From assembly GCF_963921235.1 (NCBI RefSeq), contig NC_086097.1, positions 41,914,001-41,978,000 of the forward strand: a DNA stretch of 64,000 bases. The letters run 5' to 3'. The notes beneath the pieces are model-generated. The model was given only the letters and a program-made list of their open reading frames with translations, made no database searches and had not been told where the DNA came from. The position numbers were made by a program, and so were the translations under genes. Numbering within the stretch: the first letter of the stretch is position 1; each line of letters starts with the position of its first letter. This DNA is from Mobula hypostoma (Eukaryota). Positions 6,322 to 62,541 of this stretch are shown in pieces.

Positions 6322-7521
6322 AACAACAGGAATTCTGCAGATGCTGGAAATTCAAGCAACACACATCAAAGTTACTGGTGAACGCAGCAGGCCAGGCAGC
6401 ATCTCTAGGAAGAGGTACAGTCGACGTTTCAGGCCGAGACCCTTCGTCAGGACTAACTGAAGGAAGAGTTAGTAAGAGATTTGAAAGTGGAAGGGGGAGG
6501 GGGAGATCCAAAATGATAGGAGAAGACAGGAGGAGGAGGGATGGAGCCAAGAGCTGGACAGGTGATTGGCAAAGGGGATATGAAAGGATCATGGGACAGG
6601 AGGTCCAGGGAGAAAGACCAGGGGTGGGGGGAAACCCAGAGGATGGGCAAGGGGTATAGTCAGAGGGACAGAGGGAGAAAAAGGAGAGTGAGAGAAAGAA
6701 TGTGTGTATAAAAATAAATAACGGATGGGGTACGAGGGAGAGGTGGGGCATTAGCGGAAGTTAGAGAAGTCCTTACCACCATTCAGGGCCCCAGACAGTC
6801 CATTCAGGTGAGGCGACACTTCACCTGTGAGTCGGCTCGGGTGATATACTGCGTCCGGTGCTCCCGATGTGGCCTTCTATATATTGGCGAGACCCGACGC
6901 AGACTGGGAGACCGCTTTGCTGAACACCTATGCTCTGCCCGCCAGAGAAAGCAGGATCTCCACACATTTTAATTCCACATCCCATTCCCATTCTGACATG
7001 TCTATCCACGGCCTCCTCTACTGTAAAGATGAAGCCACACTCAGGTTGGACGAACAACACCTTATATTCCGTCTGGGTAGCCTCCAACCTGATGGCATGA
7101 ACATCGACTTCTCTAACTTCCGCTAATGCCCCACCTCCCCCTCCTACCCCATCCGTTATTTATTTTTATACACACATTCTTTCTCTCACTCTCCTTTTTC
7201 TCCCTCTGTCCCTCTGAATATACCCCTTGCCCATCCTCTGGGTTTTCCTCCCCACCTCTTGTCTTTCTCCCCGGACCTCCTGTCCCATGATCCTCTCATA
7301 TCCCCTTTGCCAATCACCTGTCCAGCTCTTGGCTCCATCCCTCCCCCTCCTGTCTTCTCCTATCATTTTGGATCTCCCCCTCCCCCTCCCACTTTCAAAT
7401 CTCTTACTAACTCTTCCTTCAGTTAGTCCTGACGAAGGGTCTCGCCTGAAACATCAACTGTACCTCTTCCTAGAGATGCTGCCTGGCCTGCTGCGTTCAC
7501 CAGCAACTTTGATGTGTGTTG
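6322..7521 (+). mobile_element. Penelope-like element (Neptune-type GIY-YIG end) with inverted terminal repeat
   Basis: GIY-YIG remnant VIYCVRCSRCGLLYIGETRRRLGDRFAEHL (from 6841) and RLDEQHLIFRLGSLQPDGMN. 6356-6771 is the reverse complement of 7106-7522. TSD cctgtttctgtgct at 6308-6321 and 7522-7535. Confidence 0.93.
6419..6454 (-). ncRNA. Minimal type I hammerhead ribozyme motif (PLE-associated), intact core
   Basis: Minus strand reads AGTC-CTGACGA-AGG gtctcgg CCT-GAAA-C-GTC-GACT: stem I AGTC/GACT, CUGANGA and GAAA boxes, GUC cleavage triplet. Confidence 0.8.
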
Positions 7522-8109
7522 CCTGTTTCTGTGCTGTAGTTTTTCTATGGTTTCTATGGTTAGGTTGCGTTTATGGGTACTTGGACCATTCAGAAATCTA
7601 ATGGCAGGGGGACGAAGCTGTTGCTAAAATGTTAAGTGCGTGCATGTGTATAACAGCCATGGTTGGCTTGGGTATTCCAAAAAAGATGACCATTTGATCT
7701 TGGATTGCCCGTGGTCAGATTGGCCGTGATCAGGTCAGTTTATAAACTGTGTACCGAGCAGTCCTTAGTGCAAGCTGTGCTAACCTCATTTTGTTACTTA
7801 CTGAGGACTCTGATCACGCCATCAGGATGTGTTTTCTCTTGGAATGTGGCCGTGCTCTTGGGCTTGCAGGGGATCAAAGATCTTAGAAAGAACCTAAACT
7901 GATCACTTAGTTGAAACACAGGAGGCAAGTAGCAAGTGGCATATCTTCTACTGAAGAAAGCAACACGTTAAGCAAACACATGTACACACACACAAAGGAA
8001 TACACACATATGCCTTTATTAGACAGTTAAATGTCTGCATTAGGTGGGCATGTTGACAATTCAACAACCCAAAAGGCTGTGGATTCTAGTTGACTCAAAC
8101 ATTCTGATC

Positions 8110-8420
8110 ACATAGTTTAACCTGGCACTCCGGTTCAGAATTGCGGGAGTGCTTCACCATCAAGAGGCGCTGTCCTTTGGAGGAATTATGAAGTTGAGGG
8201 CTAGTCTGCCGCAAAGATGCCAATGCATTTTTCATCAAAAACCAGCATAGTTCTCCTGGTGTACTGGCCATTATTTAAATAGCAATCAATTAATTCAGGC
8301 CATCTGTTCATTTCAACCATTGCTGTTTGTTGGAGCTTTTGTATTCAAATTGCCAGCTGCCCAAAACGTAATATTGTTAAGCACAGATGAGCTGATTCCG
8401 CCTGGGATTGTGAAAATGCA
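8110..8420 (+). mobile_element. Ancient Deu-domain SINE (SacSINE1/AmnSINE1-like) remnant
   Basis: Collinear blocks gggagtgct..gaggcgctgtccttt..gtctgcc..aaagat..agttctcctggtgtactggccattattt..cattgctgtttgttggagctt..caaattg resemble the Deu-domain consensus as I recall it. Confidence 0.65.
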
Positions 8421-9674
8421 CTCCACTTAGTTCCATTGTCCAGCTTGCTTTTCCCTTTCATTCCTTTCGGCAGCCAGTGTGGAATTTAGTTTGCCATCTT
8501 TTCTGCAGCAGATTCTAAGTTGAAATCACTTACTGCACAAACTGCTATTTCCTCATGTTTCCTTTTGTCCTCTCACCAGCTACCTCCAAATGCCCCATAT
8601 TATTCCAGTAAAAACAATTCAGAAATGTAATTGTCTGTGAAATGCTTTGAGAGTGTGAGAGGCATGGTGTAAGAGAACTGGAGAACACCTGAAGGAAAAT
8701 AATCTCAATGCTGTGAGGCTTGGAATTAATTGGGCAGCTCTGCCAAAGAGCTGGCACGGGAACAAGGGGCCAATAAACCTCGAATTTTGAAAATATTATT
8801 TGGAGAAACACATATCGACAGAGAAGGGAGCAGAATAATGTTCCCCCGAAATAATTGAAAAAACAGTAGTGACAACAGAACATAAAGCAGAACAGTACAG
8901 CACAGGAATAGCTTTCTGATCACAACGTTGTGCCAAGCTAAATAAATTAATATTCAAATGTCCAACTAAACTAATCCCATCTGCCTCACAATATCCAAAA
9001 CCTTCCATTTCTTGCGCAATTGTGTGCCTATTTAAGAGCTTCTTGACTGTCTCTGTTGTATTTGCCTCCATCAGCAGCCCAGGCAGTGCATTCTCAGTGT
9101 ATCACTCTCTGTGTAAAAAAACCTGCACCACACACCTCCTTTCAATTTCACTTCACTCACTGTAAATGCATGTCTTCTAGTATTGGATATTTCAACCTCG
9201 GGAATAAAAAAGACACTGGCTGTCTGTCTACCCTCTCGTAATCTTATAAAGCTCTATCAGATTTCCCTAAATTTAACAAACCTCTTCTGATAGCACAATG
9301 TCTTCTAATTCAGGCAACACCTTGGTAAACCTGTTCAGCATCCTCTCCAAAGCTTCCACATCCTTCTTATAGTGGGTTGACCATGACTCGATGCAATACT
9401 CCATACACGGTCTAAGTAAAATTTTATAAAATTGCAACGTAATTCCTCAGCTAATAAAGGCAACAATGCGATATGCCTTCTTTACCACCGGTGTAAGGAC
9501 TTTCGGGGATCTATGAACTTGGATCCCAAGATACCTCTACACATCAAAACAAAGAGGGTCCAGCCATTAACAGTGTATTGTATCTTTACAGTTGATCTCC
9601 CAAGATGTAACATTTCATATTTGCCTAGGCTAATTCCATTTTCCACTTCTCCTCCCATATACACAACTGATCTA

Positions 9675-11862: not shown

Positions 11863-12214
11863 TATCATGATCTATATCATGCTATATCCTTTGTCAGTCT
11901 TCTACACTGTACACAACACCACCAATCTTCCTATCAATTGCGGATTTACTAACCTTTCCATCTACATTTTCATCCATATGTATGTGTTAGCAGAAGTTTC
12001 AATACGGATTCCTGCGGAACACCATGAGTTGCAGACGTCTTGCCAGAATAAGTCCCATCGATTACTACCCTCTTTAGAGCAGGACAATTCTGAATCCAAA
12101 TGGCCACCTTGTATCCTATGCATGTTAATCTGTTGGAAAACCCTTTGAGAGGAGGGACTTTGGCCAACGCCTGACAAAAATCCATGCGGACAACATCTAC
12201 AGCTCGGCCTTTAT

Positions 12215-12932
12215 CAAAAATACAAAGATTCGAAGTATGTATACATTAAACAACCTTGAGATTTGTCTCCTAAAAGGCAGCCATGAAACACAGAACCTAT
12301 ATAAAAAAGACCACCAAACACCCGATGCGCAGAAAAAAAATGCAAGCAAATAGCATTCTGAACAGAAGTCTGCAAGAGACTAGCATAGTTCAGCAAAGTT
12401 CAGCACAGAGCCAAGTAAACCTCAATGAGCAGTGATATGAACTGGTCCATCCCCTGCCTTGGGTCCCGACACCCTGACCTTTTCAATCTGGCCCGGCAAC
12501 CTAAGTCAACGGCCAAACCTCGAGTTCAGTCGAATCTGTATGGTCTGGGGCCTGGACCCCACCACATCAATTTGGCTTGTAACCAACACTTGCAATACGG
12601 CTTGGCACTTAAATCTCCATACAGACATTGTGTTCAGTTGAATCAGTATGCTTTGGTGCCTGATCTCGCCGCCTCGATTCTGCCTTCGGCACGGCACTTA
12701 AATCGAACGAACCTCGGGTCCTCCTCACTCTTGGCAACGGGTCTGCTGCCTCACCTTGCCTCAGTTCTGCCACATAGAATTGCCTTCAAGTCCAAAAGTA
12801 AGTTACAGAACTATTATTTGCAATGATAGTTTACCAGAAAAAGTGTGATTAACTAGGTATTTAATTATTTCCTTGTTTCGTTAGCCACCAGTCAGAAGTT
12901 GCTGAAGTTCACCAGTGCCATCTAAAACTGGA
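12215..12932 (-). mobile_element. Non-autonomous retroposon-like repeat (family also at 32355-32675, 35000-35327, ~58945)
   Basis: Shared 3' block (gga)gacaaatctca.g.ttgt...catac.ttga and TTTGA(AC)-type tail. No coding signal. Confidence 0.6.
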
Positions 12933-13159: not shown

Positions 13160-13935
13160 AATCAGAATTATTATCACTGACTAAGATGATTTGAATGTTT
13201 ATGTTTTGCAGCATCAGTACCAAGACATAAAATTAATATAAATTACAAAACTTAAAGGAATAGTGCAAAAAATGAATAATGAGATAGTGTTCATGGATTT
13301 ATGCACTGTTCAGAAATATGATGGTGGTGTAGAATAAGATGCTGTTCCTGAATTGTGAAGGAAGGCTCCTGCACTTCCGCCACAGTGGTAGTAATGAGAA
13401 GAGGGCAGGTGGAGCAGAGAAATGAGATCTACAAACCCAGAACAGGAGAGAGAAAAAAAGTTATTCAGTGGATATGTGAGATACACACTGGCATAGCTGA
13501 TTATTTAAAATTGCTGAGTTCTTTGTTGAGAACTGAAGGTTGTGATGTGTCATTTCAGGAACTGAAGAACATACTGATTGGTTGCATCACAGCTTGGTAT
13601 GGAAGCTCCAATGCACAGGATCATAAGAGGCTGCAGAGAATTGTAGATTCAGCCTGTTATATCATGGGCACAATCCTCCCTGTCATCAGAGACATCTTTA
13701 AGAAGGCAGCATCCGCCAGTAAGGACATTCACAATCCGGGATATACCCCCTTCTCATTACTACCTTACAATGAAAGGTCTGGTGGATGCTGCCTTCTTAA
13801 AGATGTCTCTGATGACAGGGAGGATTGTGCCCATGATATAACTGGCTGAATCTACAATTCTCTGCAGCCTCTTATGATCCTGTGCATTGGAACTTCCATA
13901 CCAAGCTGTGATGCAACCAATCAGTATGTTCTTCA
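13160..13935 (-). mobile_element. Rex1/Babar-like LINE 3' fragment, rearranged by an inverted duplication
   Basis: Peptide NILIGCITAWYGSSNAQDHKRLQRIVDSA resembles the Rex1-type RT C-terminus. 3' tail aatcagaatt at ~13160. Confidence 0.7.
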
Positions 13936-14095
13936 GTTCCTCAAATGACACATCACAACCTTCAGTTCTCAACAAAGAACTCAGCAATTTTAAATAATCA
14001 GCTATGCCAGTTTGTATCTCACATATCCACTGAATAACTTCTTTTCTCTCTCCTGTTCTGGTTTTGTAGATCTCATTTCTCTGCTCCACCTGCCC
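13403..14095. repeat. Long inverted repeat, arms 13403-13719 and 13779-14095, 59-bp spacer
   Basis: Arms are reverse complements with only a handful of mismatches. Mirror ORFs 13355+ and 14089- encode nearly the same peptide. Confidence 0.97.
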
Positions 14096-16745: not shown

Positions 16746-17818
16746 GACATTGGTGTACTGGCATGAGCACTGGACTTCAAGGCGGATGGCCCTGAGTTCA
16801 AATTCGGCTGGGCCCCAACCTGGTCACAAACAAAAGAAAATCTGCAGGTTCTGGAAATCCGAGCAACACACACAAAATGCTGGAGGAACTCAGCAGGCCA
16901 GGCAGCATCTATGGAAAAGAGTACAGCCGACGTTTCGGGCTGAAACCCTTTGGCAGGACTGGAGGGAAAAAGCTGAGGAGTAGGTTTAAAAGGTGGGGAG
17001 AAAGGGGAAAAGAAACACAGGGTGATAGGTGAAGGGGAGGGATGAAGTAAAGAGATGGGAAGTTAATTGGTGAAAGAGGCAGAAGACCATGGAAGAGAGA
17101 AGAGGGGGGAGGAGAACCAGAGGGAGGTGATGGGTGGGCAAGGAGATAAGGTGAGAGAGGGAAAAGAGGATGGGTAATGGTGAAGGGGGGGTGGGGGGTA
17201 TTGCTAGAAGTTTGAGAAATCAGTGTTCATACCATCAGGCTAGAAGCTACCCAGATGGAATATAAGGTGTTGTTCCTCCAATCTAAGCATAGCCTTATCA
17301 CAACAGTGGAGGAGGCCATGGATGGACATAACGGTAAGGGAGTGGGAAGCAGAATTAAAATGGGTGGCCACTGGGAGTTCCCGGTTTTTCTGATGGATGG
17401 AACATAGGTGCTCAGCAAAGTGGTCTCCCAATTTACGCCGGGTCTCACTGATATACAGGAGGCCACACCAGCAGCACCAACTTCCCAGCTCTTTACTCCA
17501 TCCCTCCCACTTCAGGTTTCACCTATCACCTTGTGTGTGTCTCTCTCCCCTCCCAGCCCCCCTTTTAAATCTACCCCTCTGCTTTTTTTCTCCAGTCCTG
17601 CCGAAAGGCTTTGGCCCAAAACGTCGACCGTACTTTCTTCCATAGATGCTGCCTGGCCTATGGAGTTCCTCCAGCATTTTGTGTGTTGTTGCTCGGGTCC
17701 CAACCTGGGCAGCAGCAGTATCTGCGTGGAAGAAAGGCCTGGCAGTATATTGCCACGGAAACCCTATGGACAACTCATCGTGTCACAATGACTTGATGGC
17801 ACTCAGCAGCAACAACAC
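16746..17818 (+). mobile_element. tRNA-headed SINE with RTE-like tail (16746-16826 + 17695-17818), split by a PLE
   Basis: A-box-like tggtgtactgg, B-box-like gagttcaaatt. Tail tgccacggaaaccctatggac..gtcacaatgacttgatggcac..caacaaca. Confidence 0.6.
16827..17694 (-). mobile_element. PLE with inverted termini
   Basis: Minus GIY-YIG remnant GDHFAEHL..VATHFNS..RLEEQHLIFHLG. 17478-17690 is an inverted copy of the terminus. TSD ggg(c/t)cccaacctgg(t/g)ca at 16810-16826 and 17695-17711. Confidence 0.9.
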
Positions 17819-22289: not shown

Positions 22290-22520
22290 GACAATGCTGG
22301 AAATACTCAGCAGGCCAGGTGGTGTCTGTGGAGAGAGAAGCAAAATTAATATTTCAGACTCTTCATCAGAACAGGAAAAAGTGAAAGGGAAGAAATTATT
22401 AAAATGTAGAGAAAGCAGACTGAATTGAGAAGGAAGGGCTGGGTTTGTGGTAGGGTGGAGACTAAGAGATTTGAAGGACACACTTTCTGGAGCTGACTGA
22501 AAGGGAGGGAGTGGGTAAAA
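22290..22520 (-). mobile_element. Older PLE terminus with a hammerhead-like core at 22345-22372
   Basis: aatgctggaaatactcagcaggccagg; minus strand GTT-CTGATGA-AGAgTCT-GAAA-T-ATT-AAT. Confidence 0.65.
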
Positions 22521-24882: not shown

Positions 24883-25798
24883 AAGGATGGGTTCCCACCA
24901 CCAAACACAGCTTTCTCTCTGCCCAACTTTCTGCTTTCCACAGAGGTCACACACGATGCAACGCACGTCCATTTGTCCCTCCCCACTTATCTCCCTCCTG
25001 GCACTTATCCTTGCAAGCGGAACAAGTGCTACACCTGCCGTTACACCTCCTCCCTCACTACCATTCAGGGCCCCAGACAGTCCTTCCAGGTGAGGCGACA
25101 CTTCACCTGTGAGTCTGTTGGGGTTATATACTGTATCCAGTGCTCGCAGTGTGGCTCCTGTCTATCAGTGAGCCCTGATGTAGATTGGAAGACAGCTTCG
25201 CCGAGCACCTACGCTCTGTCCACCAGAAGAAGCAGGATCTCCCAGTGGCCACCCATTTTAATTCCACTTCCCATTTCCATTCCAATACGTTAATCCTCTA
25301 CTGTCATGATGAGGCCATACTCAAGTTGGAGGAACAACACCTTATATTCCATCTGGGTAGCCTCCAATCTGATGGCATGATATTTCGAACTTCCAGTAAT
25401 GTCCCCCACCCCCTCCCTTCACCATCTCCCATCCCCTTTTCCCTCTCTCACCTTATCTCCTTGTCTGCTCACCACCTCCCTCTGGTGCTCCCCCCCACCC
25501 CGGCCCCTTTTCTTTCTTCCATGGTCTCTGTCCTCTCCTATCAGATTCCCCCTTCTCAAGCCCTGTATCTCTTTCACCAATCAACTTCCCAGCACTTTAC
25601 TACATCCCTCCCCCTCCCAGTTTCACCTATCATCTTGTGTTTCTCCCTCCCCTCCTCCCTCCACTTTTTAAGTCTATTTCTCATCTTTTTTTCTTTAGTC
25701 CTGCTGAAGTGTCTTGGACCGAAACGTCGACTGTACTCCTTTCCCATAGATGTTGCCTGGCCTGCTGAGTCCCTCCAGCCTTTTGTGTGTGTTGCTTG
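24883..25798 (+). mobile_element. PLE (Neptune-type) 3' part: Zn-knuckle linker, GIY-YIG and terminus
   Basis: YPCKRNKCYTC..FTCESVGVIYCIQCSQCG; FAEHL; LEEQHLIFHLG; HHR-like agtcCTGCTGA..GAAAcgtcgact at 25697-25732. Confidence 0.9.
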
Positions 25799-32049: not shown

Positions 32050-34850
32050 CAAAACAAAATGCTGGAGGAATTCAGCAGGTCAGGCAGAATCTATGGAAAA
32101 GAATAAACAGTTGATGTTCTGGGCCGAGCCCCTTTTTTCAGGACTGGAAAGGAAGGGGGAAGACATCAGAATAAAACAGTGGGGGTAGGGGAAAGAAGCT
32201 AGCTGGAAGGTAATAGGTGAAGCCAGGTTGGTAGGAAAGGTTAAGGGCTGAAGAAGAAAGAATCTGATAGGAGAAGAGAATGGACCATAGGAGAAAGGGA
32301 AGGTGGAGGGGACCCAAGGGGAAATAATAGACAGGTGAGGAAAAATAAAAAGTCAAAAATTCATTTATTATCAAAGTATGCATGCAATATATATCTCTGA
32401 GATTTGTCTGCTCCAGATAGCCAGGAAACAAAGAGAACCATGGAGGTTAGTTCAAAGAGAAACGGGTAGCCCAACCCACCGCACAAAAATAGAATGGCAA
32501 CATGATCGCCAACCCCCAAACCCCACCTTTCCCACACAAATGCCAAGGAACAGCAACGCCAAAAGCCCCTCCCCTACACAAAAATAACAAAATGTAACAA
32601 GAACATCAACTCCTGCACAAAAAAAAGAGAAAGAAAAGGCAAAAACACAGAATATATAAACCTTAAGACTGAAAAGGTCAGAGTGGGGAATAGCAGAGGG
32701 GAGGTGGAATTTATTCACCAGAAGGGGGAATCGATGTTCACGCCATCAGGTTGGAGGCTACCCAGACAGAATGTAAGGTGTTGCTCCTCCACCCTGAGGG
32801 TGGCCTCATTGTGGTACAAGAGGAGGCTATGGACCAACACATTGGAATGAGAATAGGAATCTGAATTAAAATGTTGGCCACCAGGAATTCCGACTTGTGG
32901 CAGATGTTGCGGAGGTGCTCGACGATGCAGTCCCCCAATTTACAACAGGTCTCACCATTGTAGAGGAGGCCACATCAGGAGCACTGGACATGGTAGTTGA
33001 CCCTGGTGATGTGTTCCCTCAACTGGAAGGAATGTTTGAGGCCTTGAATGGAGCTGAGGGAGGAGGTGTATAGGCAGGGGTAACACTTAGGCCAATTGCA
33101 GGGATAAGTGCCTGCGGGAAGATTAGTGGGGAGGGACGAATGGACAAGGGAGTCATGGAGGAAGCAATCCCTGTGGAAAGCAGAGAGGGGGAGGTAAAGA
33201 TATCTTTAGTACTAGGACGCCTGTAGAGAAGGCGGAAGTTACAGAGGATAATGTGTTGGATGCGGAGGCTGATGGGGCGGTAGGCAAGGACAAGAGAGAC
33301 TCTATCACTGTTACGACAGTGGGAAGATGGGGAGAGTGCAGATATACGGGAAATGGAGGAGGTGCAGGTGAGGGCAGCATCAGTAGTAGAGGGAGGGAAA
33401 CCCCATTCGTTAAAGAAGGAGTACGTCTCAGATGTGCTGGAATAAAAAGCTGGTTCATGAGAGCAGATGGAAACGAAGAAACTGAGAAAAGGGAAGAGCA
33501 TTTCACCAGCAAGTAGGGTGGGAAAAGGTACACTTGAAATAACCTTGGGAATTAGTCGGCTTATAGAAGATGTCAGTCGGCAGGGACAGAGCCAGAGAGA
33601 TCAAGAAAGAGGAGGGAGCTGTCATAAATGGATCAAGTGAATTTAAGGGCAGGGTGGAAACGCTGATAACATCGACAAGCTCAGTATGGGTGCATGAAGT
33701 AGCAACAATGCAATCATCATTGTAGCAAAGGAAGAGTTGGGGAGTATAACCGGGGAAGACTACATAGCCAATGAATAGGCAGGCATAGCTGGGGCCCATG
33801 TGAATACCCATGGCTACACCCACCCACCCCACCAAGTTTGGAGAACGGGGGAGGAGCTGAAGTAAAAATTGTTCAGGGTGATGACAAGTTCCACCAGATG
33901 GAGGAGGGGAGTGGTGGAAGGGGATTGGTTAGATCTTTTGTCAAGAAAGAAGCAGAAAGCTTTGAGGCCTTCTTGATAGGGGATAGTAGTGCATAGGGAC
34001 TGAACGTCCATGGTAGAGATAAGACAGTCAGGGCCAGGGAACTGAAAGTGAGTGAGGAGATTGAGGGCATGAGAAATATCACCAATGTCAGTGGGAAGGT
34101 ACTGAACCAAAGGGGAGAGAATGGAATTGAGGTATGAGTTCAGTTGGGCAGGAGGAGGCAGAAGCAATAGGCCTACCTGGACAGTCCTGTTTGTGGATCT
34201 CGGGTAGGAGGTCAAAGTGAGCAGTGCGGGGTAAGAGAACTATGAGTTTGGTGACATGGTTGGGAGTTCTCCAGAGTGGATGTGGTCAGAGATGGTGTCC
34301 GAGATCAAAACTGGGATGAGAGTGGGGAAACAAGCTGGTGGTGTTAGAAGAGAGAGGAGGGTTGGGTGTTTAGGGAAGGTGGGGTGGGAGGATGATAGAG
34401 CTTCTGAGGACCCAAGAGGTGACGGGGGACCTAAGAGACCCAGGGTTGCAGAGCGGTGTGGAGGAAGGGGAGAGAGCGGTCCAGCAGCAGCGTATAAATT
34501 CTCTGCCTGGAGATGCCGGCAGTCGACGTCCAGACTGGAGCTGGAGCTAGAGGTTGTGCAGTGAGCAGTCAGAACATGTCTGCGGCCGTAGGAACCAGCA
34601 TTGTTGACAGTGGAATTCGGATTCTTGATCCACACGGGATCATTGGAACCAACACTGGCAGTAGTAGGGTTACCAGTCGGGAGGAGCCCAGAGCAGTCAG
34701 AGCTGGGGATGGAGTCAGAGAGATCAGTAATCTGGGGATGTCCAATGGAATTGAGGTCCAAGCAGAAGGCAGGGATCTTACTGCAAATGTACAGATCGCC
34801 ACCTTTGTTGCAGAAACTGGTCAGTATACATTTCACATGTAATGTGACTC
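32050..34850 (-). mobile_element. Longest PLE copy in the window (decayed RT + GIY-YIG + terminus), with nested insertion 32355-32675
   Basis: RT motifs STMDVQSLCTTIPYQEG, GVAMG..GPSYACLFIG, LCYNDDC, FYKPTNS; EN remnant GDCIVEHL; PLE terminus at 32050-32340. Confidence 0.9.
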
Positions 34851-38300: not shown

Positions 38301-39914
38301 GATTACATGGGTGAGAGCAGTGGAAAATATCCAAATCTTTATAAACCAGGGACCTCTACTGTTTGAAAGGCAAACAAGAAGAAGAGTACTTGCTGAGAGT
38401 TGGCAATGCAGTTGGCAACTTTATAGAAATTACAGTTATAGAGAAAGATGTGGCAGATTCTGAAAAATTGTCCCTCTGTGATTGGAGGCTCTTTCTAGGA
38501 TGGTTCCAAAAGAATGAAGGATCTACCAAGCCAGGGAAAAATGGTTGTTAGCCAGATGCTGCAGTAAGTCTAGTTATGCTGTGACTTCACGAGTACAGAG
38601 AAACTGAGGAGCTAGAAACAGCATAAATAACAAATCTCATGTCAACCAAGCAGTGGTTAACTCTGAAAGTTTGCTCCAATCGGGGCAAGCAACTGAAAGA
38701 ATGGCCGTACAATGATGTACTGTTACTAGGGCAGTATGGTGGAACGCAGGTATTAGTGTATAAAAAAACACGATGTGTGTAGCTTTTGCATGTTCCCTTC
38801 AGGTTTTGAAGTCACTGTCATACTGTAACAAAACCTGATTTCAGAAGCAAAGTATATAAGTTGACATATCGTGCATTCAGTTCGTGAAATGAATGACCAA
38901 TTTTCTTTCTCAAAGAATAAGCAAAATGGGATGAAAGCAAACTGCTGGATTAGCAGATCAGGCAGCCTCTGGAACAGAAATGTTGCTAATGTTTTGGATC
39001 TATGATCTTACATCAGAGCTTAACAACTGGAAAAGACACATCTGAAAGAAATGCGATGCTTCAGTCAGTGAGGTAGATTCTAATTACAGGGTTCATGTCT
39101 GTGCTGTAATATGAGGTATTCTTCCATCTGGTCACAGAGAATGTGCGGTGCACAGTACAGGGTACAGACTGACACTAGTGCATTACTGCAGTTTATATTC
39201 TGATAGGTGTGACAATATAAGGTGGGAGAACAAATGCCAACATTGGCCTGCTACACAAATATTCATCAACATAATTCTCTTCCATAAGGTAAAATTCCCA
39301 TTGATGAGGAGAGATCAGCTTGCATAGTTCAAGATTGTAACAGGCTATTTTTAGAAGTTTTTTGTATGACCCATGGCTCCGGGGTTGTACACCTAATGGG
39401 TTCTCTTTTTTTTCTCTCACTTTTCTGCTCAGTAGGTTTTTTTTGTTATCACAAAATTTTGTTTTCAATCTTTAAGATAATGTTTTTTTTGAGGCATTGT
39501 AAGTGTTGTTACTTTGATGTACTCATATTATTTTTCCTATATATACAATAAAGAGATTTGAAAAGAAAAAAAGGAAAGAAAGATTGTAACAGGCTGATTG
39601 CTTTTAGATGTAGTTTCCCCTTGGGAACCAACAGCAACAATCTCAACAACAGTGTTATTTGAGACTTTAGAACATTGAACAATATGGCAGAGTTCAGGCC
39701 CTTCGACCCATGACCTCTTAATCTTTTCCAACATCATTCTAATGTTTCCCTCTTCAATAGCCCTCCATTTTTCTTTCATCTATCTGCCCATCAACTTGTC
39801 TCTTAAATGCACCTAAATGTCCTGTTTTGCAAAGGAAGAGCTTCAGTGGTGGGTACTTTGTTGAACAGGAGATAAAGCTGTCATGATAAGGTACCTATAA
39901 ACCGATCTGTATTA

Positions 39915-43368: not shown

Positions 43369-43504
43369 AAACACAAGAGATTCTGCGGATAATGAAAATC
43401 TTGAGCAATACATACAGGATGCTGGAGGAACACAGCGAGTCAAGCAGTGTGAATAGAAGAGAATAAACAGTCAACGTTTCAGGTTGAGACCCTTCATCAG
43501 GACT
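43369..43504 (-). mobile_element. PLE terminal fragment
   Basis: aacacaagagattctgcggat..gctggaggaac.cagc, ending exactly at the hammerhead motif. Confidence 0.8.
43469..43504 (-). ncRNA. Minimal type I hammerhead ribozyme motif, intact core
   Basis: Minus strand reads AGTC-CTGATGA-AGG gtctcaa CCT-GAAA-C-GTT-GACT; palindromic AACGTT at stem III. Confidence 0.78.
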
Positions 43505-49779: not shown

Positions 49780-52700
49780 CATATGATATTTCTTTTCATT
49801 CTCCATTGATGCTGCTCTCATACTCATCTCCTCCATTTTCAAGGCATTCTGCTCTCACCCATCTTTCCATCGCCTTAATAGTGATAGAGTTCCGCTTGTT
49901 CCTACCTACCGACCCATGAGCCTCTGCATCCAACACATCAGTCTCCGCAACTTCTGCCATCTCCAAAAGGATTCTACCACTGAACACACCTTTGCCTCAT
50001 GCCCTCCCCACTCTCTACAGGGATCATTCCCTCTGTGATTCCCCAGTCCATTCGTTTCCAACCCGCTCCCCCGCTCCTCCCCCCGACTAATCTCCCTCCT
50101 GGTGCTTAACCCTACAAGTGGCCAAGGTGCTGCAGTAGGTTTTCGCAAATAAAATGACATGAAGTGTTTTATGTTTAAGAAAAAACATAACAAATCATTT
50201 ATTGTACCACAAACACTGAACACAAAAAATGCAGTAACAGAACTTCATGTAATTACATCGTCACGTCAGACCAGCCTATTAAAGTGAACCCAACTCAGTG
50301 TTTCCACCAGTTACATTACCCTGCACAGGCATCCCCAGAATTCAGTAAAACCAGCATTGTAAGCCTGTTTGAGCTCGGATGAGGCGCCTGGTTCGGGTCC
50401 TGTGTTCCATGGGAGGAAGCAGTGCCAGGTGCCTCTGGCTCACCCAGAGATGTGTTGACATGCTCATGGTCATGTCGTGACAGCAAGGGCAAGGTAGTAA
50501 TCCACCAACACTTGAGGGAGGAGTGGTTTAGGGTGATCTACCAAAGTACATTCAGGTTTACCCCTCTTATCTATGATAAAAGTCTTTTCTCTCCATTCCA
50601 AAACATGGAACGGGCCATCATAAGGGGGCCTAAGGGGACACTGGTTTGCATCATGGCAGATGAAAACAAACAAGGCGGAATGTGGGTCAAGAGGAACCCA
50701 AGAGTATGGTACACCATGATGGGAGGCAGGAGCAGGTACAAAGGAGTTGAATTTACAAAGGAGGGTGGAACACTTCTGAGAAGCAGACCAGGCAATGAAG
50801 GCACTTGTAACGGCTGCCCATATACCAACTCAGCCGCGGACGACTGCATGTCCGGTTCTCGAGCTGTTCTGAGACCCAGCAGGACCCACGGGAGATGATC
50901 ATGCCAACACTCATCTGTCAGGCAAGCCCTCACAGCAGCCTTTAAAAAGCGGTGAAACAGCTCGCATGGGCCATTGGACTGCTGGTGATAGGCCGTGGTG
51001 TGATGTATCCTAATGCCGAGGTTCCGGGCCATCACAGCCCTGAGGTCCAATATGAATTGGGGAACGTGGTCAGAGGAAATATCAGATGGGGTGCCAAACC
51101 GAGCAACCCAGGTGCTGATGAATGTGCGAGTCCTGCCTGCAGTCGTCATCGATGCTGGAGGGATGACCTCTGGCCACCGTGGTAAGAAGGTGTGTGAGAC
51201 CACAGGTCTGGGGAAGAGGACCAAGAAGGTCCTCATTGACACGGTCAAATCGTTGCTCAGAGACCTTGAAAGGTAACAATAGTGCCTGAACAGGATGGCA
51301 ATTTTTTTGCCTGCTCGCACTCCACACAGACTACAGTCTAATCACGTACGTCCGTTCTAAGGCCATGCCATACAAACCAGTTTCTGTGAGGCCTTCTGGC
51401 CCGGATGTGAGAGGCCAGGTTTGGAATCAAAAACAGCCCACCTCCAGTTTGTGGGCATCATGGGGGCGAGGGCAACTGGTTAAGATATTGCACAAGAGAG
51501 AAACCCTAGCATTACCGAAATTAATCTCAGCTAATTACAGGCCCACGACTACTGTTTGGTAAACTTGGACCTCTGGGTCAGTAGCCTGGTTGGCTGCCAT
51601 GCTGGTACAGTCAACCCCTATGAGTGTGGTCACAAAGGCTAGCCATGGCGCTATTTTCCCTCTTGATATGTTGTATATCAGTTGTGAACTCAGATATGTA
51701 GACCAGGTGGTGTTCCTGCTGTGCAGACCAAGGGTCTGATATTGTGGCCATCACATGCACGAGGGGTTTGTAGTGAAGGAACACTGTGAAATGGCAACCC
51801 TCTAGAAGAAAACAAAGTGTGCGGAGATGAGATATGTGTTCAGATTTGGATGCACTGGTGACAAGTGGGTTATCCAGGTTAACAAAAAGAAAGTCTAAGT
51901 CTTTTAATACAGAGTCTATCAGCCTTTGGAAAGTCTGTGCTGCATTTTTCAGCCTAAATGGCATGCGCAGAAACTCAGCGGGCAAGTGGGGTTATCACGG
52001 CCATTTTGGGAATGTCCTTCAAGCACACAGGCACCTGAAGTTAGCCCCTAACAAAGCCAACTTTGGAAAAAATTCACTTTCCAGCTAAACCTGCCAAAAA
52101 GTCTTGGGTGTGTGGGGCTGGGTAACAATCAGGGGTGGTGACCTCATTAAGGCGTCGGTAATCACCACATGGGCAGCAACCACTATTGGACTTAGGGACC
52201 ATATGGAGGGGTAAAGCCCAGCGGCTACTTGACCAGCGTACAATGCAGAGTCTTTACATGTTGGCAGATTCAGCCTTCACAGTTGCCAGTTTTTCTGGGT
52301 CCAGTCTGAGTGTGCAGGCGTGGACTGGTGAGCCAATAGTGGAAATGTGATGCTTGACTCCATGGTTTGTGACAGTAGTGGGCTGAGTGAGGTTTGGGAA
52401 TTCGCCCAGCAGTCGAGTAAACTCACGTGCGGTGGTGCATGTGCTTGACAGCATCGTTGTGGGGAACTTACTGGGGGAACTGGGTAATGACCCAAAGCCC
52501 TTGACATCTTAAGATCAACTAACAGTCCCTGGACGCACAGGAAATGTGAACCGAGCAGAGGTCTAGCCACATTAGGCAGGATGAAGTCCCATGTGTAATG
52601 TTGCCCACTGAAGTAGAGCATCTCTCATCGTATCCAGTAAGTCTGAATTCTGCTACCATTGGCGGCCTCCAGCGAGCTTTTGTCACTCTTTGCCTTCACA

Positions 52701-54510
52701 TCAATAGGTGATGCTGGCAGCACACTCACTTGAGTTCCCATGTCACACAGGAAGCGTCGCCCTGAAAGGGTGTCCGTAATGAATAGTAGACGACCGTGGC
52801 AGCTGGAACCCATTTTGTTCACAGACCTCTGATGCTCAGATGCGCTGGCACTGTCAAGCAGCAAGGTAGTCGGCATTTCCTGGCATTCATACCAAAGCAA
52901 GCGTGGCAAAAACACAGGCCCGGCATCATCGGTTTCGCAGCCACAGATGCCTTATTTTGGGGGGGCCTTGCTGACTGGATTTTTTTGTGGTAGGGAAAGG
53001 AGGAGGAAGGAAGCACCATTGTCTAGCTGACTGTAGACTATTAGCCATTTTAGCAAGCTCTCTCTAATCCTTCATGGGTGCATTAGAGGGCTATGCGAAC
53101 TTGATCAGGTATTTGCTACATGAAGAGTTCTTTAAAAATAAAATAAGTATGGTGATTTCCCAGGAGAGACAGCATGTGGTCCATTAACTTCGATGGATTA
53201 GCTCCGCTGAGGCTGGGCATGGAGAGCAACTCTTTGGCGTGCTCGGATTCTGATAGTCCAAAAGTCCTTAAAAGGTGAGTTTTGAGAGATCAGAATTTAT
53301 AGCGTTTAGGTAGGTGTTCAAGCAGACTCACCACTCTTGCAGCTGTGGAGCTGCAGAGCAATGCTACCACATAGAAATATTTGTTGTTGTTGGTGCTGAT
53401 TACTTGTAGCGCAAATTGTGCCCCAGCTTGTACAAATCAAGTGACGCCATTTTGCTCCCAAATATCCAACAGTTTCAAAGCGACTGTGTTGGCTGACAGG
53501 TTCAATAACTTGGGATTCGGCCCAGAGCATCGGTGTCACCAATGTACAGTAGTCTTTCACAAATAAAATGATGTGAGGTATTTTATGTTTAAGAAAAACT
53601 GTAGCAACTCATTTATTTCGTACAAACACTGAACACATAAAGTGTGGTAATCGAACTTCACGTAATATGTCATCATCTCAGATCAGCCTCGTAAAATGAA
53701 CCCCAACTCAATGCCAGTGGTTGTGAATTATGTATATTTCCACCACTTACATTATCCTACACTACACCTGCCCATTCACCACCTCCCTCAACTCCAGTCA
53801 GGGTCCCAAACAGTCCTTTCAGGTGAGGCAACACTTCACTTTCTGAGGTCAGCTATTGTATCCATTGCTCCCGATGTGGCCTCCTCTACAATGGTGAGAG
53901 CTGTCATAAGCTGAGGGACCGCTTTGTCGAACACATCTGTTCCATCTGCCAAAGGAGGAACTTCCTGGTGGCCCAACATTTTAATTCCCATTCCTGTTCT
54001 GACATGTCAGTCTATGACTTCCTCTTGTGTCACAATGAGGACACACCCAGAGTGGAGAAGCTACACCTTATATTCCATCTGGGTAGCCTCCAACCTGATA
54101 GAATGAATCTTCATTTCTTCTTTCAGTATAAATATTTTCCCCTCTTCCTCCCCCTTCTTCTATTCCCCACTCTGGTCTCATTGCTCTTCTCAACTGCCTA
54201 TACCTCCCCTGGTGCCCCTCCTTCTTCCCTTTCTCCTCTTGTCCACTCTCCTCTTCTATCAGATTCCTTGCTCTCCGGCCTTTTACCTTTCCCACCCAGC
54301 TGGCTTCACCTATCACCATATAGCTGTCCCACTTCACCTTGCCCCACCTTTTTACTTTGGCGTCTTCCCCTTTCCTTTCTAGTCCTGAAGTCGGCCTGTA
54401 ACACCCGATGTTTGTTCATTTCCATGAATGTTGCCTGATCTGCGGAGTTCCTCCAGCATTTTGTGTATGTTGCTTTGGATTTTCACCATCTGCAGAATGT
54501 TCGTGTTTGT
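49780..54510 (+). mobile_element. PLE (49780-50129 + 53763-54510) split by a Gypsy insertion
   Basis: ..caagtggccaaggtgc | tacacctgcccattcacc rejoins the Zn-knuckle; VAQHFNSH..EKLHLIFHLGSLQPD; terminus ttcctccagcattttgtg..atctgcaga. Confidence 0.88.
50130..53762 (-). mobile_element. Decayed Gypsy LTR retrotransposon (gag-PR-RT-RH-IN) with both LTRs
   Basis: LTRs ~50130-50327 and 53543-53762; PBS-like TTGGTGACACCG. PR LLFITDTLSGRRFLCDMG; RT MPFRLKNAAQTFQR; RH ISEFTTDIQHI; IN WVARFGTP..TTAYHQQSNG..PYDGPF. Confidence 0.93.
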
Positions 54511-56437: not shown

Positions 56438-56550
56438 TCCCCCTTCTTTTCCAGTCCTGAAGAAAGTTCTCAGCCCAAAATGTCAACTGTTTATTCAGTT
56501 CCACGGATGCTGCCTGACCTGTTAAGTTCCTCCAGCATTTTGTCTGTGAT
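56438..56550 (+). mobile_element. PLE terminal fragment
   Basis: ccagtcctgaagaaag..aaatgtcaactgttta..gatgctgcctgacctg..ttcctccagcattttg. Confidence 0.8.
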
Positions 56551-57309
56551 AATCTGAAAGGACTGGTTGTTTACCTTGGCAGATATGATGTGACTGTTGG
56601 ACTTCTTCTGAGAAGTTCTGGGTTCAAGGAGTTGGCATTTATTGCCCTAGTCAGCCCCTCCACAGGCTTGGCCAACCCTCCAGTCTCAATACCATCCTTT
56701 TGCCTCTCTTCTTCCATTAAAAAGACATTGATATTCAGCTGCTTGAGCCTTGAAGTTGAGTTTGTCAAATTGGCCATCATTCCTGCTGTCCAAATTCCCT
56801 CCATCGATCAGTAATTACATTGGAGGAAGTATTATCAGATTTGATATTTTCTGGCCCCATTTATTCTCTGATACAAATGTGAAGGGAGATTATTTCGAAA
56901 AGGTACAAACATAGGCACACTTCCATGAATCAGTAATCATGAAAATATCCATTCAAAGGTCAAGTGTAATCATCTACACAATTGTTGAATGCAGTTGCAG
57001 ACCATCACTGCAGAGTGAATTACAGAAAACACAACCCAAAAGAAACCTTTGCAGAGAATCTTCTAAGAATAGCTGAGTGAAGCTATGTTGGTTTTTCAAC
57101 TCAATTAAATTGATACATTCAGTTATCCTCCAATAGTAGTAACATTTGTTACAGAAAAGAGGCACCGAGAGCATTATCAGGACTATAATAAGGATGCAAT
57201 GGCAGCAATACAGAATTTGACATGAAAATATTCCAATCTGTGAGTAAGCAGAAATGATTCTATTGCCTCATTGTATTTAACTTTCAGTTGATCATCCTGT
57301 AAAAGAGCC

Positions 57310-60085
57310 TTAGAGTCATAGTCTTTCGTAGCTTGGATGCAAGCAAGCTGGCCGAACACGCCCACTTGAGCTAGTCCTGTTTGCCTGTTTTTGTCTCTTA
57401 CCCCTCTAAACCTTTCCATAAAACCATTAAGTCTAGAAGACAGTAGCAGAATTAGGCCATTCAGTTCATTAAGTCTACTCCACTATTTCATCATGGCTGA
57501 TTTATTATCCCCCTCAAACTCATTCTCCTGCTTCCTTCCCATAATCTATGACACTCTTTCTATTCCAGAACATATCGACCTCCGCTTTAAATATCTCCAA
57601 TGACTTGGCCTCTGTAGTTGTCTGTGGCAATGAATTCCTCATACTCACTACCCTCTGGCTAAAGAAATTCTTCTTCATCTCCGTTCTTGCAGGACGTCCT
57701 TCTATTCTGAAGCTGTGCGCTCTGGTCCTGGACTTTTTTGGCAGCTCAGGCACGGTAAGTGTCAGTGTCAGATCCCTACTGAAGGTCGGGAGAGAGAGAG
57801 AGAGAGAGAGAGAGTAAAGAAAGACCAGCTTTGGGTAAATCCGGCATGCTGCTAGTCTTTTCTGAAGAGAAGGCTGATGCAAAATATTTTATTCAGTTCG
57901 TCCGCCTTTTCCTTGTCCCCTACCTCTACAGTATCATCATCCAGTCGTCCAATACCTAACTCTTGCTTCTCTATTGCTCATTATACATCCAAAAAACTTT
58001 TCGTATCCTCTGATATTATTGGCTAGCTTACCTTCATATTTCATCTTTCCCTCCATATGGTTTTTTGTAGTTCCCTTTTGTTGGTTTTTAATTTTCCCGA
58101 TACTCTAACTTCCCATTAATTTTTGTTCTATCGTATGTGTCATGAGTCCCTCGGGCTTGTGCACATGTATTTATTTGTTGTTGTCTTATCTACAGTCGTT
58201 AAGCCCTTGTGCTTTCTGCTTAACTTTGTCAACTCTATTTTAACTAGCACAGGTTTACCGCCTACTGTATTTATTTAAAGCAGACTCCCAATTAGCATTG
58301 AGGGTGGGATCCTTGTGCTTTTGAAATGATTCATCTCACGGTGTTGCTTGGTCAAGGCACTAATATTCTGTTGGAATTCATATGAATAAGCTCTTATTTC
58401 TGTCTCTACATGAGAGTCTGTCGTTCCCCTGCACCTGGGTTCAGTCATCCGTTAGTGCACACTGTGACAGTCAGACCCCACCATAAATGGACCCATTTGA
58501 CGTTCAACAGCACCTTGGACATCAGTCAGCTGGAGGCAAGAGTGAATTCTATTCTCAGTGCTTGTCCCAATACCACATTTCGAGTTCCCAGAAGCCATGT
58601 TCCAAGTTTCCTGAGGCTACCTTCCAAGTTCTTCGAGTCCACACTCTGATATTCTCTAGTCTACTTTCAAGGCCATCATGGATTTCTGGGACTCCCATGC
58701 GGTCCAGGATTCTGAGAAATCTTCCAGGTTTCCAAAGACTATTCCACGTTTCCAAGGACTATTCCATGTTCCTGAGTTATATACGATGTTCCCAAGTTTA
58801 CCAGCCCTGTCTTGAGAACATCAGGTTCATCGTGAATTTACAAGCCGTGTTTCAAAGTTCCCTTGGGCTCACTGGGCCATCAGATTCTGGCCTTAGGGAG
58901 GGAGGTACTGTAATGAGCTCCACAGGCCTGTGCACCTGGATTTGTTTCAATAGGTACATTTAATGTCAGAGAAATATATACAATATATATCCTGAAATTC
59001 CTTTTAATTGTTATCTTACCTACAGTTGTTAAACTCTCGTAATTTCCTTTTAATCTTGTCAAGTTTATTTTGACTGTCATGGATTTATTGTGATTATTTA
59101 AAGCAGACCCCCAATTAGCACCTATGGCAGGATCTTTGTGTTTCAAGAATGATTCATCGCATGGTGTCGCTCAGTCAAGGCACCAATCTTCAGTTGGAAT
59201 TCCTATGAATAAGTACTTGTTTCAATCTCTACATGGGAGTCTGTCATTCCTCTGCATCTGGGTTCAGTCATCTGTCAACACAGACCGTGACAATAGACCC
59301 TCTCTTTTGCTTTCAGTTTGGTCATCCCTGCTAGTAGCCCCTTGCCACCAACTTTGGCCAGCTCCTCTCTCGTGCCTCTGTAATTCCTTTTAATCCACTG
59401 TAATACTGATGCATTTGACTTTAGCTTCTCTCTCTCAAATTGCAGGGTGAATTTTATCATATTATGATCACTACATGTTCAGGCTTCCATTGCCTTAAGC
59501 TTCCTAATCAAATCTGGTTCATTACCCAATATCCAATCCAGAATAGATGATCCCCTACTCCTAGCTTAACCACAAGCTGCTCTAAAAATCCATCTCATAA
59601 GCATTTTACAAATTCTCTCTTTTGGAATACAAAATCAGTTCCAACCTGATTTTCCCAATCTAACTGCATATTGAAATCCCCCATGACTGTTGTAACATTG
59701 CCCTTTTGACATGCACTTTCTACCTGCTGCTGTAATTTGTAGGCTACATCCAGACTGCTGTTCGGAGACCTATATATAACTCCCATCAGGATCTTTTTAC
59801 CCCTTGCAGGTTCTTAACTCTGCCTACAAAGCTTGTACATCTTCTGATCCTACGACACATCTTTCTAATGATTTGATTTCAACTTGTTTTACCAACAGAG
59901 CCATGCCACCCCCTCTGCCTACTTTCCTGTCCTTTTGATACAATGTGTATCCTTGGACGTTAAGGTCCCAACTATAATCTTTGATGACTACAATGACATA
60001 CTGGCTGATCTCTAACTGCACCACAAGATCATCTACCTTCCTTGCAGTACATGCATTCAAATACAACACCGTCAATTCTGTATTT
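57310..60085 (-). mobile_element. Fragmented CR1 LINEs (3' ends at 57310-57735; EN/linker at ~57870-58137 and 59293-60085)
   Basis: FFSQRVVSMRNSLP; GVIYRSPNS..MGDFN; LYLNA..RKVGRGGGMALLVK. Confidence 0.85.
58138..59292 (+). mobile_element. TRIM-like non-autonomous mini LTR retroelement
   Basis: Diverged direct repeats TG..CA at 58138-58469 and 58909-59292; PPT ttagggagggaggtac just before the 3' LTR; gag-like ATGGACCCA start at 58487; internal region only ~440 bp. Confidence 0.8.
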
Positions 60086-60225
60086 GTCTCCCTCCCCCTC
60101 CTGTCTTCTCCTATCATTTTGGATCTCCCCTCCCCCTCCCACTTTCAAATCTCTTACTAGCTCTTCTTTCAGTTAATCTTAATTAAGGGTCTCGGCCCAA
60201 AACGTCGACTGTACCTATTCCTATA
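60086..60225 (+). mobile_element. PLE terminal fragment (same subfamily as 7340-7470)
   Basis: cctgtcttctcctatcattttggatctcccc..actttcaaatctcttact..gggtctcggcccaaaacgtcgact. Confidence 0.85.
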
Positions 60226-60369
60226 GAAAGCCGACTAATGCTCCTTTAAAAATATCACCAATGGACATGTGAGTTACCTCCTCTCCAGCTTCTGATTCAG
60301 TTGGGCCACTGGAAAAATGCTCCATCTGCCATTCCTTGTCCTCCTTTCTTGGCTGATCAAGATCCTGCT

Positions 60370-60800
60370 GTAATCTTGGGCAACTTTCTGTCCATTATAC
60401 CACCAAGTTTGGTGTTACTGGCAGACTTACTAACCGTGCCAAATACATTCTCATTCAAAGTATTGATACAGATAACATACTCAGGTGAAACCAACACCAA
60501 TCTCAATCTAAACACCTGGTCACAGCCCCAGAGGTTCTACCACCTTCTGATTCCTACCGGCAAGCCGATTTTGCATCGAATTGGCTAGCTCACTCAGAAT
60601 CCCATGTGACATAACCTTCTGGACAAGCCTACTATGTGAGGCCTCATCAAAGGCCTTGCTAAACCCTATGTTGACAACTCTCAACAATTTTCTTGGTCAC
60701 CTTCTCAAAAAATTCAGTAAAATTTATGAGACATGATTTCCCACGCACAAAGCCATGCTGACACTCCCTAATCAGCCTTGTCTTTCTAATTGCATACAAT
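60370..60800 (-). mobile_element. Old CR1 RT fragment
   Basis: Minus strand cagcatggctttgtgcgtgggaaatcatgtctc (QHGFVRGKSCL), tttagcaaggcctttgat. Confidence 0.8.
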
Positions 60801-61534
60801 ATATTGATGATATTTAATAGTAAAATATAAATGAACATATGGAACGAAAAACTGCTGTAGGTTCTGTTTTGTCCTCATCCATCATTGAGTGAAAACTTTT
60901 TCATCTATTTTGAATTTTGTTCAAAAGTTCTTTTTCTTGATGATAGTTGAGACTAGATTATTGAGCCCTTTAAGCTAAAACAAACCAAAGCATGAAGCAA
61001 CCAAATAATGTTCAGTGAAATGGAGAGCAAAAACAATGGGGTTTATGATAGGCTGCTGTAAAAGTGTTCATGGAGATACTATATATCAATAGACCTCCAT
61101 TCTATGCTGTCATCTTCTATTGCTGTTGGACAGTATCCAGAAACGGTTCAATACTTCCAAATCTACCGAACGCTATAAACATTTTATCAGTGCTCTCATA
61201 TTATGCTCACCACAAGCCCGCTTGACAAGTTGAAATGGTTTTAACTGACCAAGCCGAAGTGATTAATCAGTGGGTCTGTGTCCTAGTGCCATTCTGGGAG
61301 TACGCTGACATACAGTTTTTTTCCAAACTTCTGAGTAAGCATGAATTCTCACATCTCAGTCCACGGCTCATTTAACATGATAGGACTTCCTTTGAAATGA
61401 AGGCTGGCAAATTAGGCATTGTACAATTGAGCTTTGCAAATACAGCTCTTCTTAGTGAGAGGAAGCAGTAATCTGATTCAATCCGCTATGCCCATATCAT
61501 TCCAACATCTTGTTTTCTTGCAGAGCTGGCCAAC

Positions 61535-61795
61535 ATAGACCAGAGTACAGTATAGTATGGGAACAGGGTTTATGACCAAACACAATGTCAAATTAAACTA
61601 GATCTCTTCAGCTATGCATGATGCATATCCCTCCATTTCCTGTACATTCATGTGCTAACTAAAACCTCTTAAATGTACCTACCATATCTGCTACCCCCAG
61701 CAGCCCATTCCAGGCACCCACACTGTGTAAAAACTTGCCCTGAATATCTTCTCGAAACTTTCCCATTCTCGTCTTAAATGCATGGCCAATGTTAT
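61535..61795 (-). mobile_element. CR1 3' fragment
   Basis: gcatatccctccatttcc..cagcccattccaggcaccca..tgtaaaaacttgcc. Confidence 0.7.
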
Positions 61796-62160
61796 TTGGT
61801 CTCTGGTTGCCTTAAATTTATGACTTGTGGAGTTTCAGTTGAATTCCAGTTGTAGCCAAGCAATGAAAGAATATTATGTTTTAATGTTTAAGAATTGTTA
61901 AATGGGATTTAGTTTTTGTTCAAACTGGATGGGATGGTGCACCTTGTCCAATGGATTGGTTATCATTCAGTGGGTAACTAACCATAAGACCAGTAAATTT
62001 TATGGCAACATTTCTGGCTTGACTGTAAGGTCCTTGGCAACTGTCAGGCTTCCACTCACATATATTGCCTGAAAAATTATTACCAGGCAAGATATTACAG
62101 AACCACGTCAATTGTGGAGCTGACAGTGTCCTCTTCTAGGCCAGCAACTCCAATATTAAC

Positions 62161-62541
62161 CCACAAACAAGAGAAAAGCTGGAAATACTGAAAACCCAAA
62201 GCAACACTCACAAAACGCTGGAGGAACAGCGGGCCAGGCAGCATCTGTGGAAAAGAGTAAATGGTCAACATTTCAAGATATTGACTGTTTACTCTTTTCC
62301 ATAGAAACTGCCTGACCTCTAGCATTTTGTGTGTGCTGCTTGGGATTTTCAGCATCTGTAGATTTTTAATAGTTCATGATACTACCACTACTGCAGAGTC
62401 TCTGACAGATGCCTACCCTGAAGATGTTTAAATCTTCCCTTCTAGTCCTGATGAAGGGTCTCAGCCTGAAATGTCAACTGTTTACTCTTTTCCATAGATG
62501 TTTCCTGGCTGCTAGGTTCCTCCAGCGTTTTGTGTGTGTTA
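62161..62541. mobile_element. Miniature PLE made of three terminal copies (inverted + tandem), hammerhead at 62444-62479
   Basis: Minus arm 62161-62275, plus arms ~62278-62367 and ~62435-62541; TSD ccaatattaa at 62150-62159 and 62544-62553; agtcCTGATGAagggtctcagcctGAAAtgtcaact. Confidence 0.82.

Follow-up and report, generated by a model that had tools for sequence, protein, structure and literature searches.

We analyzed a stretch of 64,000 nucleotides from the genome of Mobula hypostoma (NCBI RefSeq assembly GCF_963921235.1, contig NC_086097.1, positions 41,914,001 to 41,978,000 of the forward strand), hereafter called the window, which contains dispersed remnants of a Penelope-like element (PLE) carrying a hammerhead motif. 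The motif copies are the minimal hammerhead ribozymes (min-HHRs) of a PLE end repeat amplified on a very large scale, and they are probably inert by-products of the copying of uncut RNA, with stops at the motif edge. Numbered so that the A of stem I's 5' strand is 0, the 36-mer comprises stem I (0-3/32-35), the core (4-10), a bulged A, stem II (12-15/20-23), GAAA (24-27) and a palindromic stem III without a loop; cutting is predicted after base 31. We searched with a descriptor composed of a 4-bp stem I, CUGANGA, a 3-bp stem II, GAAA, the 15.2-16.2 pair and an NUH triplet. Two window sites pass it, 6419-6454(-) and 43469-43504(-), both with all eight stem I/II pairs formed in a type I topology, while each of 200 two-base-block shuffles of the window gave no match. 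Paired cells amounted to 81% in the motif register versus 15-43% in slid registers. The CUGANGA and GAAA boxes and the NUH triplet are those of a hammerhead core, the exception being position 6, which is C instead of A (A6C) in one lineage. The features of the window are as follows.

6322..7521, single Penelope insertion, inverted and tail-out; the short arm is 6322-6771(-), and the long arm, which has the GIY-YIG end, is 6771-7521(+)
6419..6454, minus strand, intact minimal type I hammerhead of the young subfamily; passes the descriptor; predicted cut after the C at 6423
7425..7459, plus strand, damaged hammerhead in the long arm of insertion 6322..7521
43469..43504, minus strand, intact-pattern hammerhead with a GUU triplet, in an older short copy that starts at the 5' edge of the motif
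62444..62479, plus strand, core intact and inner stem I pair broken; older subfamily
25697..25732, plus strand, hammerhead remnant of the A6C lineage, terminal in a 5'-truncated element of 900 bp (24889-25798) that has a GIY-YIG remnant
16925..16960, minus strand, A6C-lineage remnant of the UUCG-loop type, left arm of inverted insertion 16827-17696
17594..17629, plus strand, A6C-lineage remnant, right arm of inverted insertion 16827-17696
1254..1289, minus strand, decayed short copy of ~130 bp starting at the 5' edge of the motif, with T at position 6; probably of the A6C lineage
32109..32145, minus strand, decayed motif; it forms the 3' end of an old, long element in which reverse transcriptase (RT) remnants persist (to ~34512)
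54381..54410, plus strand, decayed motif with a deletion, in element 53762-54498
56453..56488, plus strand, decayed motif
60175..60210, plus strand, decayed motif, core lost
22345..22372, minus strand, old copy with a stem II deletion; singleton
38985..39020, minus strand, very old remnant; weak profile match (E 0.03)

A previous reading of the window from its letters only (the sequence-only reading) had listed six hammerheads and seven degenerate copies. All of these sites are present on the strands it gave, at exact coordinates or a few bases off, and the motif at 54381 is an addition to its list. Its assignment to the minimal type I hammerheads of PLEs, with a tiny palindromic stem III, was also borne out: stem III is a zero-loop ACGU (15.1-16.1) in five of five subfamily majorities and the motif lies in both end repeats of the element. 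Of three cores it called intact, those at 6419 and 43469 pass the full descriptor, but 62444(+) has a stem I pair broken. Two sites described as near-intact are more damaged than that: 7425(+) has a 1-nt deletion and has lost the stem III palindrome and one stem I pair, and 25697(+) belongs to a separate subfamily carrying A6C and has, in addition, lost two pairs of stem II. No family stands behind the short variant at 22345, since its pattern matches only two places in the genome, itself included. The Rfam scan proposed as a check returned no hammerhead family at E<=5 in the window. Insertion 6322..7521 is flanked by a 14-bp target-site duplication (TSD) at 6308-6321 and 7522-7535, and insertion 16827-17696 bears a 10-bp TSD. 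Because 6419(-) and 7425(+), like 16925(-) and 17594(+), belong to one inverted insertion each, the window copies are not all independent. A third tail-out inverted pair, without a core, lies at 62162-62343 and spans element positions +91 to +205; another copy (62330-62542) is inserted beside it.

To place these sites in their genomic context, the 3.48-Gb genome was searched for the motif. One intact 34-mer has 45,476 exact matches (none for the reversed control) and a wider intact pattern has 64,613, in agreement with the very large number anticipated by the sequence-only reading. A profile of the motif plus its tail, searched over 664 kb, gave 102 matches, 50 in 264 kb around the window and 52 in 40 scattered 10-kb stretches; reversed controls of this search gave none. 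Eleven of the 102 pass the descriptor. The density of one motif per 5 kb that had been suggested therefore holds for remnants (one per 5-8 kb) but not for intact copies, of which there is one per ~55-60 kb. Extrapolation from the scattered stretches gives ~450,000 remnants genome-wide. Five similar pattern matches were found inside 82 kb at G000:C1:141.15-141.24 Mb, probably a local segmental or tandem duplication. Some copies have lost the whole core via a deletion between the GTC repeats of stem I and stem III (for example G000:C1:98170412 and C9:84152043).

The element itself was characterized from an RT search of the genome, which gave 150 scored matches of 96-100% identity, and from 19 fetched regions, several of which hold full units. 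A full unit measures 3,515 nt and consists, in order, of a hammerhead, an ATG at +170, a frame encoding RT, a zinc linker and GIY-YIG, a 295-nt 3' untranslated region and a second hammerhead. Units are at times tandem, and at one locus three motifs are spaced 3,515 and 3,513 nt apart. At G000:C12:173,175,750-173,182,880 (loci L083-L084), three intact motifs surround two near-identical 3.5-kb units, an arrangement in which a cis dimer could form. The motif is present in both pseudo-long terminal repeats (pLTRs) of L083-84, L087, L088, L091 and L097. The element's one open reading frame (ORF), which encodes RT plus a GIY-YIG endonuclease (EN) at the C terminus, is that of an EN+ PLE, as are the pLTRs, the tandem and inverted 5'-truncated insertions and the 30-40 bp tail. 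RVT_1 (E 3.6e-5) and GIY-YIG (E 0.0011) both score below Pfam's curated cut-offs; the domain set is shared by 402 homologues, the closest named one by identity (71%) being from the bamboo shark Chiloscyllium, in keeping with a cartilaginous fish. A CxxxxCxxC linker between RT and EN, read from L085, falls within the CX2-5CxxC signature that defines Neptune and also occurs in Nematis (PMC8557442). The protein sequence thus fits a Neptune-type PLE, with a linker that fits Neptune or Nematis.

None of the 19 regions contains an unbroken frame from ATG to stop. Most of the fetched long copies lose the frame in a run of C ahead of the zinc linker; this break, common to L083, L084, L087, L088, L092, L093, L097, L099 and L101, is either a slippage hot spot or an assembly error. 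End branches of the young family measure 0.001-0.04, and the family is therefore recent. Retrozyme-like short tandem arrays with an intact motif per unit were absent from the window repeats and from the neighbours of the fetched loci, genome-wide arrays not having been searched. Locus L198 (G000:C1:1,875,528-1,878,560) carries a copy from -54 to +289 followed by the same pLTR sequence again, a tandem duplication of ~340 nt, which is retrozyme-sized.

The ends of the copies give clues regarding the template from which they were made. Among 79 copies picked solely by sequence downstream of the cut site, 24 end at +96..+101 and another 24 at +133..+135. The optional tail of the anole element stems from two internal RT start sites (PMC11167929), and the paired clusters therefore carry the signature of internal RT initiation described there. 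For the 5' side, junctions were matched genome-wide with patterns made of five forced mismatches, ten free bases and a 20-base anchor. The interval around the outer motif edge (-5..+5) contained the junction in 6,942 of 77,885 copies (8.9%), compared with 395 of 40,840 (0.97%) for an upstream control (-25..-15) and 373 of 49,709 (0.75%) around the cut site (+29..+39). The excess of ~8-fold at the edge is only approximate, because ~10/100 of the edge matches listed belong to other subfamilies and the sequence of inverted partners is not random. The 79-copy sample showed 16 versus 5. Among the matches listed, the peak as counted by eye lies at +1 (28/100) and 0 (16/100). TSD-flanked solo copies of 100-145 bp begin at this 0/+1 edge with target DNA adjoining it, which argues against a spliced-on exon. 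A hot spot at the cut site was considered and rejected: among the matches listed, non-inverted junctions at +32 (6-9/100 by eye) are as frequent as at neighbouring positions. Copies span the cut site. Our inference is a mostly uncut template with its 5' end at 0/+1, an RT stall being an alternative (the initiator consensus is YYANWYY).

Three window copies (25697, 16925 and 17594) belong to the A6C lineage. Genome-wide, position 6 is C in 1,600 of the 2,193 copies with a UUCG loop. Copies with a CUCG loop and a non-A base at this position number 2,503, and the base is C in 78/100 among the matches listed; in an older A subfamily used as control, C makes up 19/100 of non-A bases, as for random mutation. 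An unbiased sample gave C6 in 11 of 55 readable cores (a further 30 hits did not extend over the core and 17 were unreadable), which extrapolates to roughly 60,000 copies. On a tree built without the motif, C6 copies group together (2 changes versus 16.5 when shuffled), and a single C6 clade is not rejected (approximately unbiased test, p 0.36); in free trees, however, copy 25697, itself C6, sits close to the A clade (96/72). Sense ORF remnants lie upstream in 19 of 44 C6 loci, and of 20 A6C copies, 8 begin at the 0/+1 edge. The A6C change strongly reduces cleavage by two other hammerheads in Mg2+ but not in Mn2+ (PMC7151607). A lineage with a probably crippled ribozyme thus amplified through two loop types before dying out, whereas later families have A6. 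A reversion of A6C on the line leading to the young family was unsupported, the C count of the older A subfamily (19/100) being that of random mutation. The two subfamily changes of UUCG-loop copies such as L049 both complete an alternative 6-bp hairpin over the core; the idea of a selected 'off' hairpin was not retained, since 275 of 1,460 double changes made at random were as disruptive to the stems.

Five subfamily majorities, built from 11-40 copies each, were compared over the motif and its flanks. Identity between subfamilies is 52-67% over the 60 nt upstream of the motif, with 90% between the two youngest, and 68-93% over the 60 nt downstream; changes inside the motif sit at N7, in loop II, at one G-C/G-U pair and at CpG sites. 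Conservation above that of the flanks, together with this placement of the changes, indicates that the motif was under selection in the master elements. The covariation of stems I and II proposed as a check was not found, in a test of low power on 14 window copies from one genome (167 of 500 shuffles reach the observed score); between subfamilies there is one G-C/G-U change plus loop changes and nothing compensatory. An older family with a compensatory U3-A32 pair was sought and not found: the 297 GUU/AAC matches listed look CpG-decayed, and copies with A32 retain C3 in 26 of 30 cases.

Elsewhere in the window, a 317-bp inverted repeat (13403-14095; 98% complementary, 59-nt spacer), consisting of an RTE/LINE-like fragment, has the appearance of a fold-back insertion of young age, and pieces of a decayed Gypsy-like LTR retroelement (protease, RT and integrase fragments) lie at 50383-52951(-). 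Ten window ORFs had no Pfam match, which does not show that a host gene is absent. Comparison of 11.4 kb with the contigs of four runs gave patchy cover without splice-like joints, which is not proof of absence; the contigs contained no transcript ends or informative joints.

The sequence-only reading had also suggested that intact copies inside host transcripts could cleave pre-mRNA, and the role could be extended to copies acting in trans on one another. About 65,000 intact-pattern copies offer many possible partners, and retrozyme-type copies are under-represented in Xenopus introns (bioRxiv 10.64898/2026.07.22.740005). Published single min-HHRs show no cleavage and their dimers little (PMC4209133), one of nine Xenopus dimers cleaved (bioRxiv 10.64898/2026.07.22.740005), and the anole motif required the element protein (PMC11167929). 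The monomer is predicted to form a rod that pairs core positions 6-9 (G6-G9) with the cut-site strand (28-31), at -10.0 versus -6.0 kcal/mol for the open fold. A duplex on the competing 6-bp palindrome across the cut site is predicted at -15.3 and two rods at -20, both stabler than the double hammerhead at -9.5 kcal/mol, all of these being crude values. Neighbouring hits within 1.3 kb lie on opposite strands in 136 of 178 cases (at loci chosen by pattern, some of them overlapping), so that most close pairs are sense/antisense. Because the copies are dispersed monomers or opposite-strand pairs with a predicted core-sequestering rod, and published monomers are inactive, cleavage of host pre-mRNAs appears unlikely, and we give it very little credence. 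The copies probably do host pre-mRNA no harm.

We favour a model in which the RT of the element would begin at two sites that lie 60-100 bases downstream of the motif, take uncut RNA as its template and often stop at the outer edge of the motif. Any cleavage would occur only in tandem or protein-bound element RNA and would not be required to make a copy, for which reason the A6C lineage could spread. The pile-up at the edge without an excess at the cut site, plus the amplification of A6C, argues that cleavage is not needed for copies. The C6 amplification also fits the in vitro insertion of ribozyme mutants of the anole element, which was not reduced (PMC11167929). Under the model of Cervera and de la Pena, in contrast, cleavage is obligatory: tandem or protein-assisted hammerheads would cut out unit-length RNA, which is circularised, and RT would cross the re-ligated site. 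Tandem full units with a motif at both ends, the conservation of the motif between subfamilies, copies spanning the cut site, which a circle accounts for, and two solo copies starting at this site all speak for it. A circle has no end at 0/+1, however, where 5' ends pile up; junctions around the cut site are no more frequent than in the control, a lineage with A6C amplified, and the anole mutants inserted undiminished, so we consider obligatory cleavage improbable.

The 36-mer could alternatively have been kept mainly as a promoter, a 3' splice signal or a protein-binding RNA structure rather than as a catalyst, in which case 0/+1 would be where RT stalls or a splice acceptor lies. In every subfamily the motif follows a pyrimidine tract and AG, a Penelope intron of Drosophila virilis ends at helix I (PMC4209133), and no stem covariation was found. 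This explanation nevertheless seems to us very improbable, as it is the catalytic boxes that are invariant, with variation confined to N7, loop II and a wobble, target DNA adjoins the edge in TSD-flanked copies without an intervening exon, and junctions are most frequent at +1 and 0 rather than at +2, past the AG. A bolder proposal, which we regard as possible but doubtful, treats A6C as a natural knock-out: a crippled lineage would have kept transposing (at least two subfamily steps, ~60,000 copies), with the motif at the 5' end of a capped RNA and the ribozyme a dispensable, protein-gated leader switch instead of a processing step that transposition requires.

Several observations weigh against the copying of uncut RNA with an inert ribozyme. 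The 36-mer is 86-97% identical between the subfamily majorities, and such long-term conservation implies that some selected role remains. C6 marks an old lineage that has gone extinct (end branches ~0.1), the other subfamilies, including the youngest, all keep A6, and A6C could still cut with Mn2+ (PMC7151607) or be rescued by protein. Two TSD-flanked solo copies (L194 and L241 of the 79) start exactly at the cut site, +32. About 11/100 of the cut-site junctions listed are fold-back inversions at +32; these are explained by microhomology from the stem I repeat. No extra cap-derived G was evident by eye at the edge among the junctions listed, and copies spanning the cut site would likewise arise from re-ligated circular RNA. 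In stability the monomer fold does not exceed shuffles (z -0.37), and the crudeness of the double-hammerhead energy counts here as well. The uncut-template reading remains, in our view, the probable one. The near-identical copies of the young family, which number tens of thousands, are a fossil record of the ends of element RNA, and this record speaks for uncut templates and for a sharp 5' end at the ribozyme edge. The role of PLE hammerheads has been called unclear (PMC8557442), and the A6C lineage provides a natural variant for asking whether catalysis matters in vivo.

The kind of motif has been known since 2014, and earlier work already describes min-HHRs of PLEs, their dimer design, their opposite-strand pairs and their occurrence in Neptune elements of fish (PMC4209133); what merits bench testing is the A6C lineage. 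We found no paper on ray hammerheads in literature listings, and supplements not examined may list chondrichthyan or A6C cases. Like the metazoan min-HHRs of that study, the ray motif is of type I with a short stem I, a base bulged after A9 and a zero-loop palindromic 15.2-16.2, lies in both pLTRs of full elements, and occurs mainly as single truncated copies and opposite-strand pairs. It differs in a stem II of just 3-4 bp, in a subfamily-level A6C core (the core variant there being U3-A8) and in a copy number far above the ~4,000 of coelacanth and ~9,000 of Xenopus; Table S1 of the same paper includes no chondrichthyans. The Poseidon element PAc of Anolis (PMC11167929) shares two internal RT starts, a 30-40 bp optional tail, an uncut RNA template and a cut site without ends. 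Its motif overlaps the ATG, whereas the ray motif lies 170 nt upstream, RT starts here in the 5' untranslated region, and the protein carries a zinc linker of the Neptune type. Non-LTR retrozymes are also of type I, derive from PLE pLTRs and reach very high copy numbers, with 126,247 motifs in axolotl (PMC7229834; Li et al. 2026 bioRxiv), and have been reported in one chondrichthyan genome (Li et al. 2026 bioRxiv). Unlike them, the ray copies are dispersed truncations and inverted pairs, with no short head-to-tail intact array in the window or the fetched loci. Finally, C also replaces A at core position 6 in the natural hammerhead Bcep176, a single non-PLE ribozyme with a normal stem III (PMC7151607), whereas in the ray A6C marks thousands of retroelement copies.

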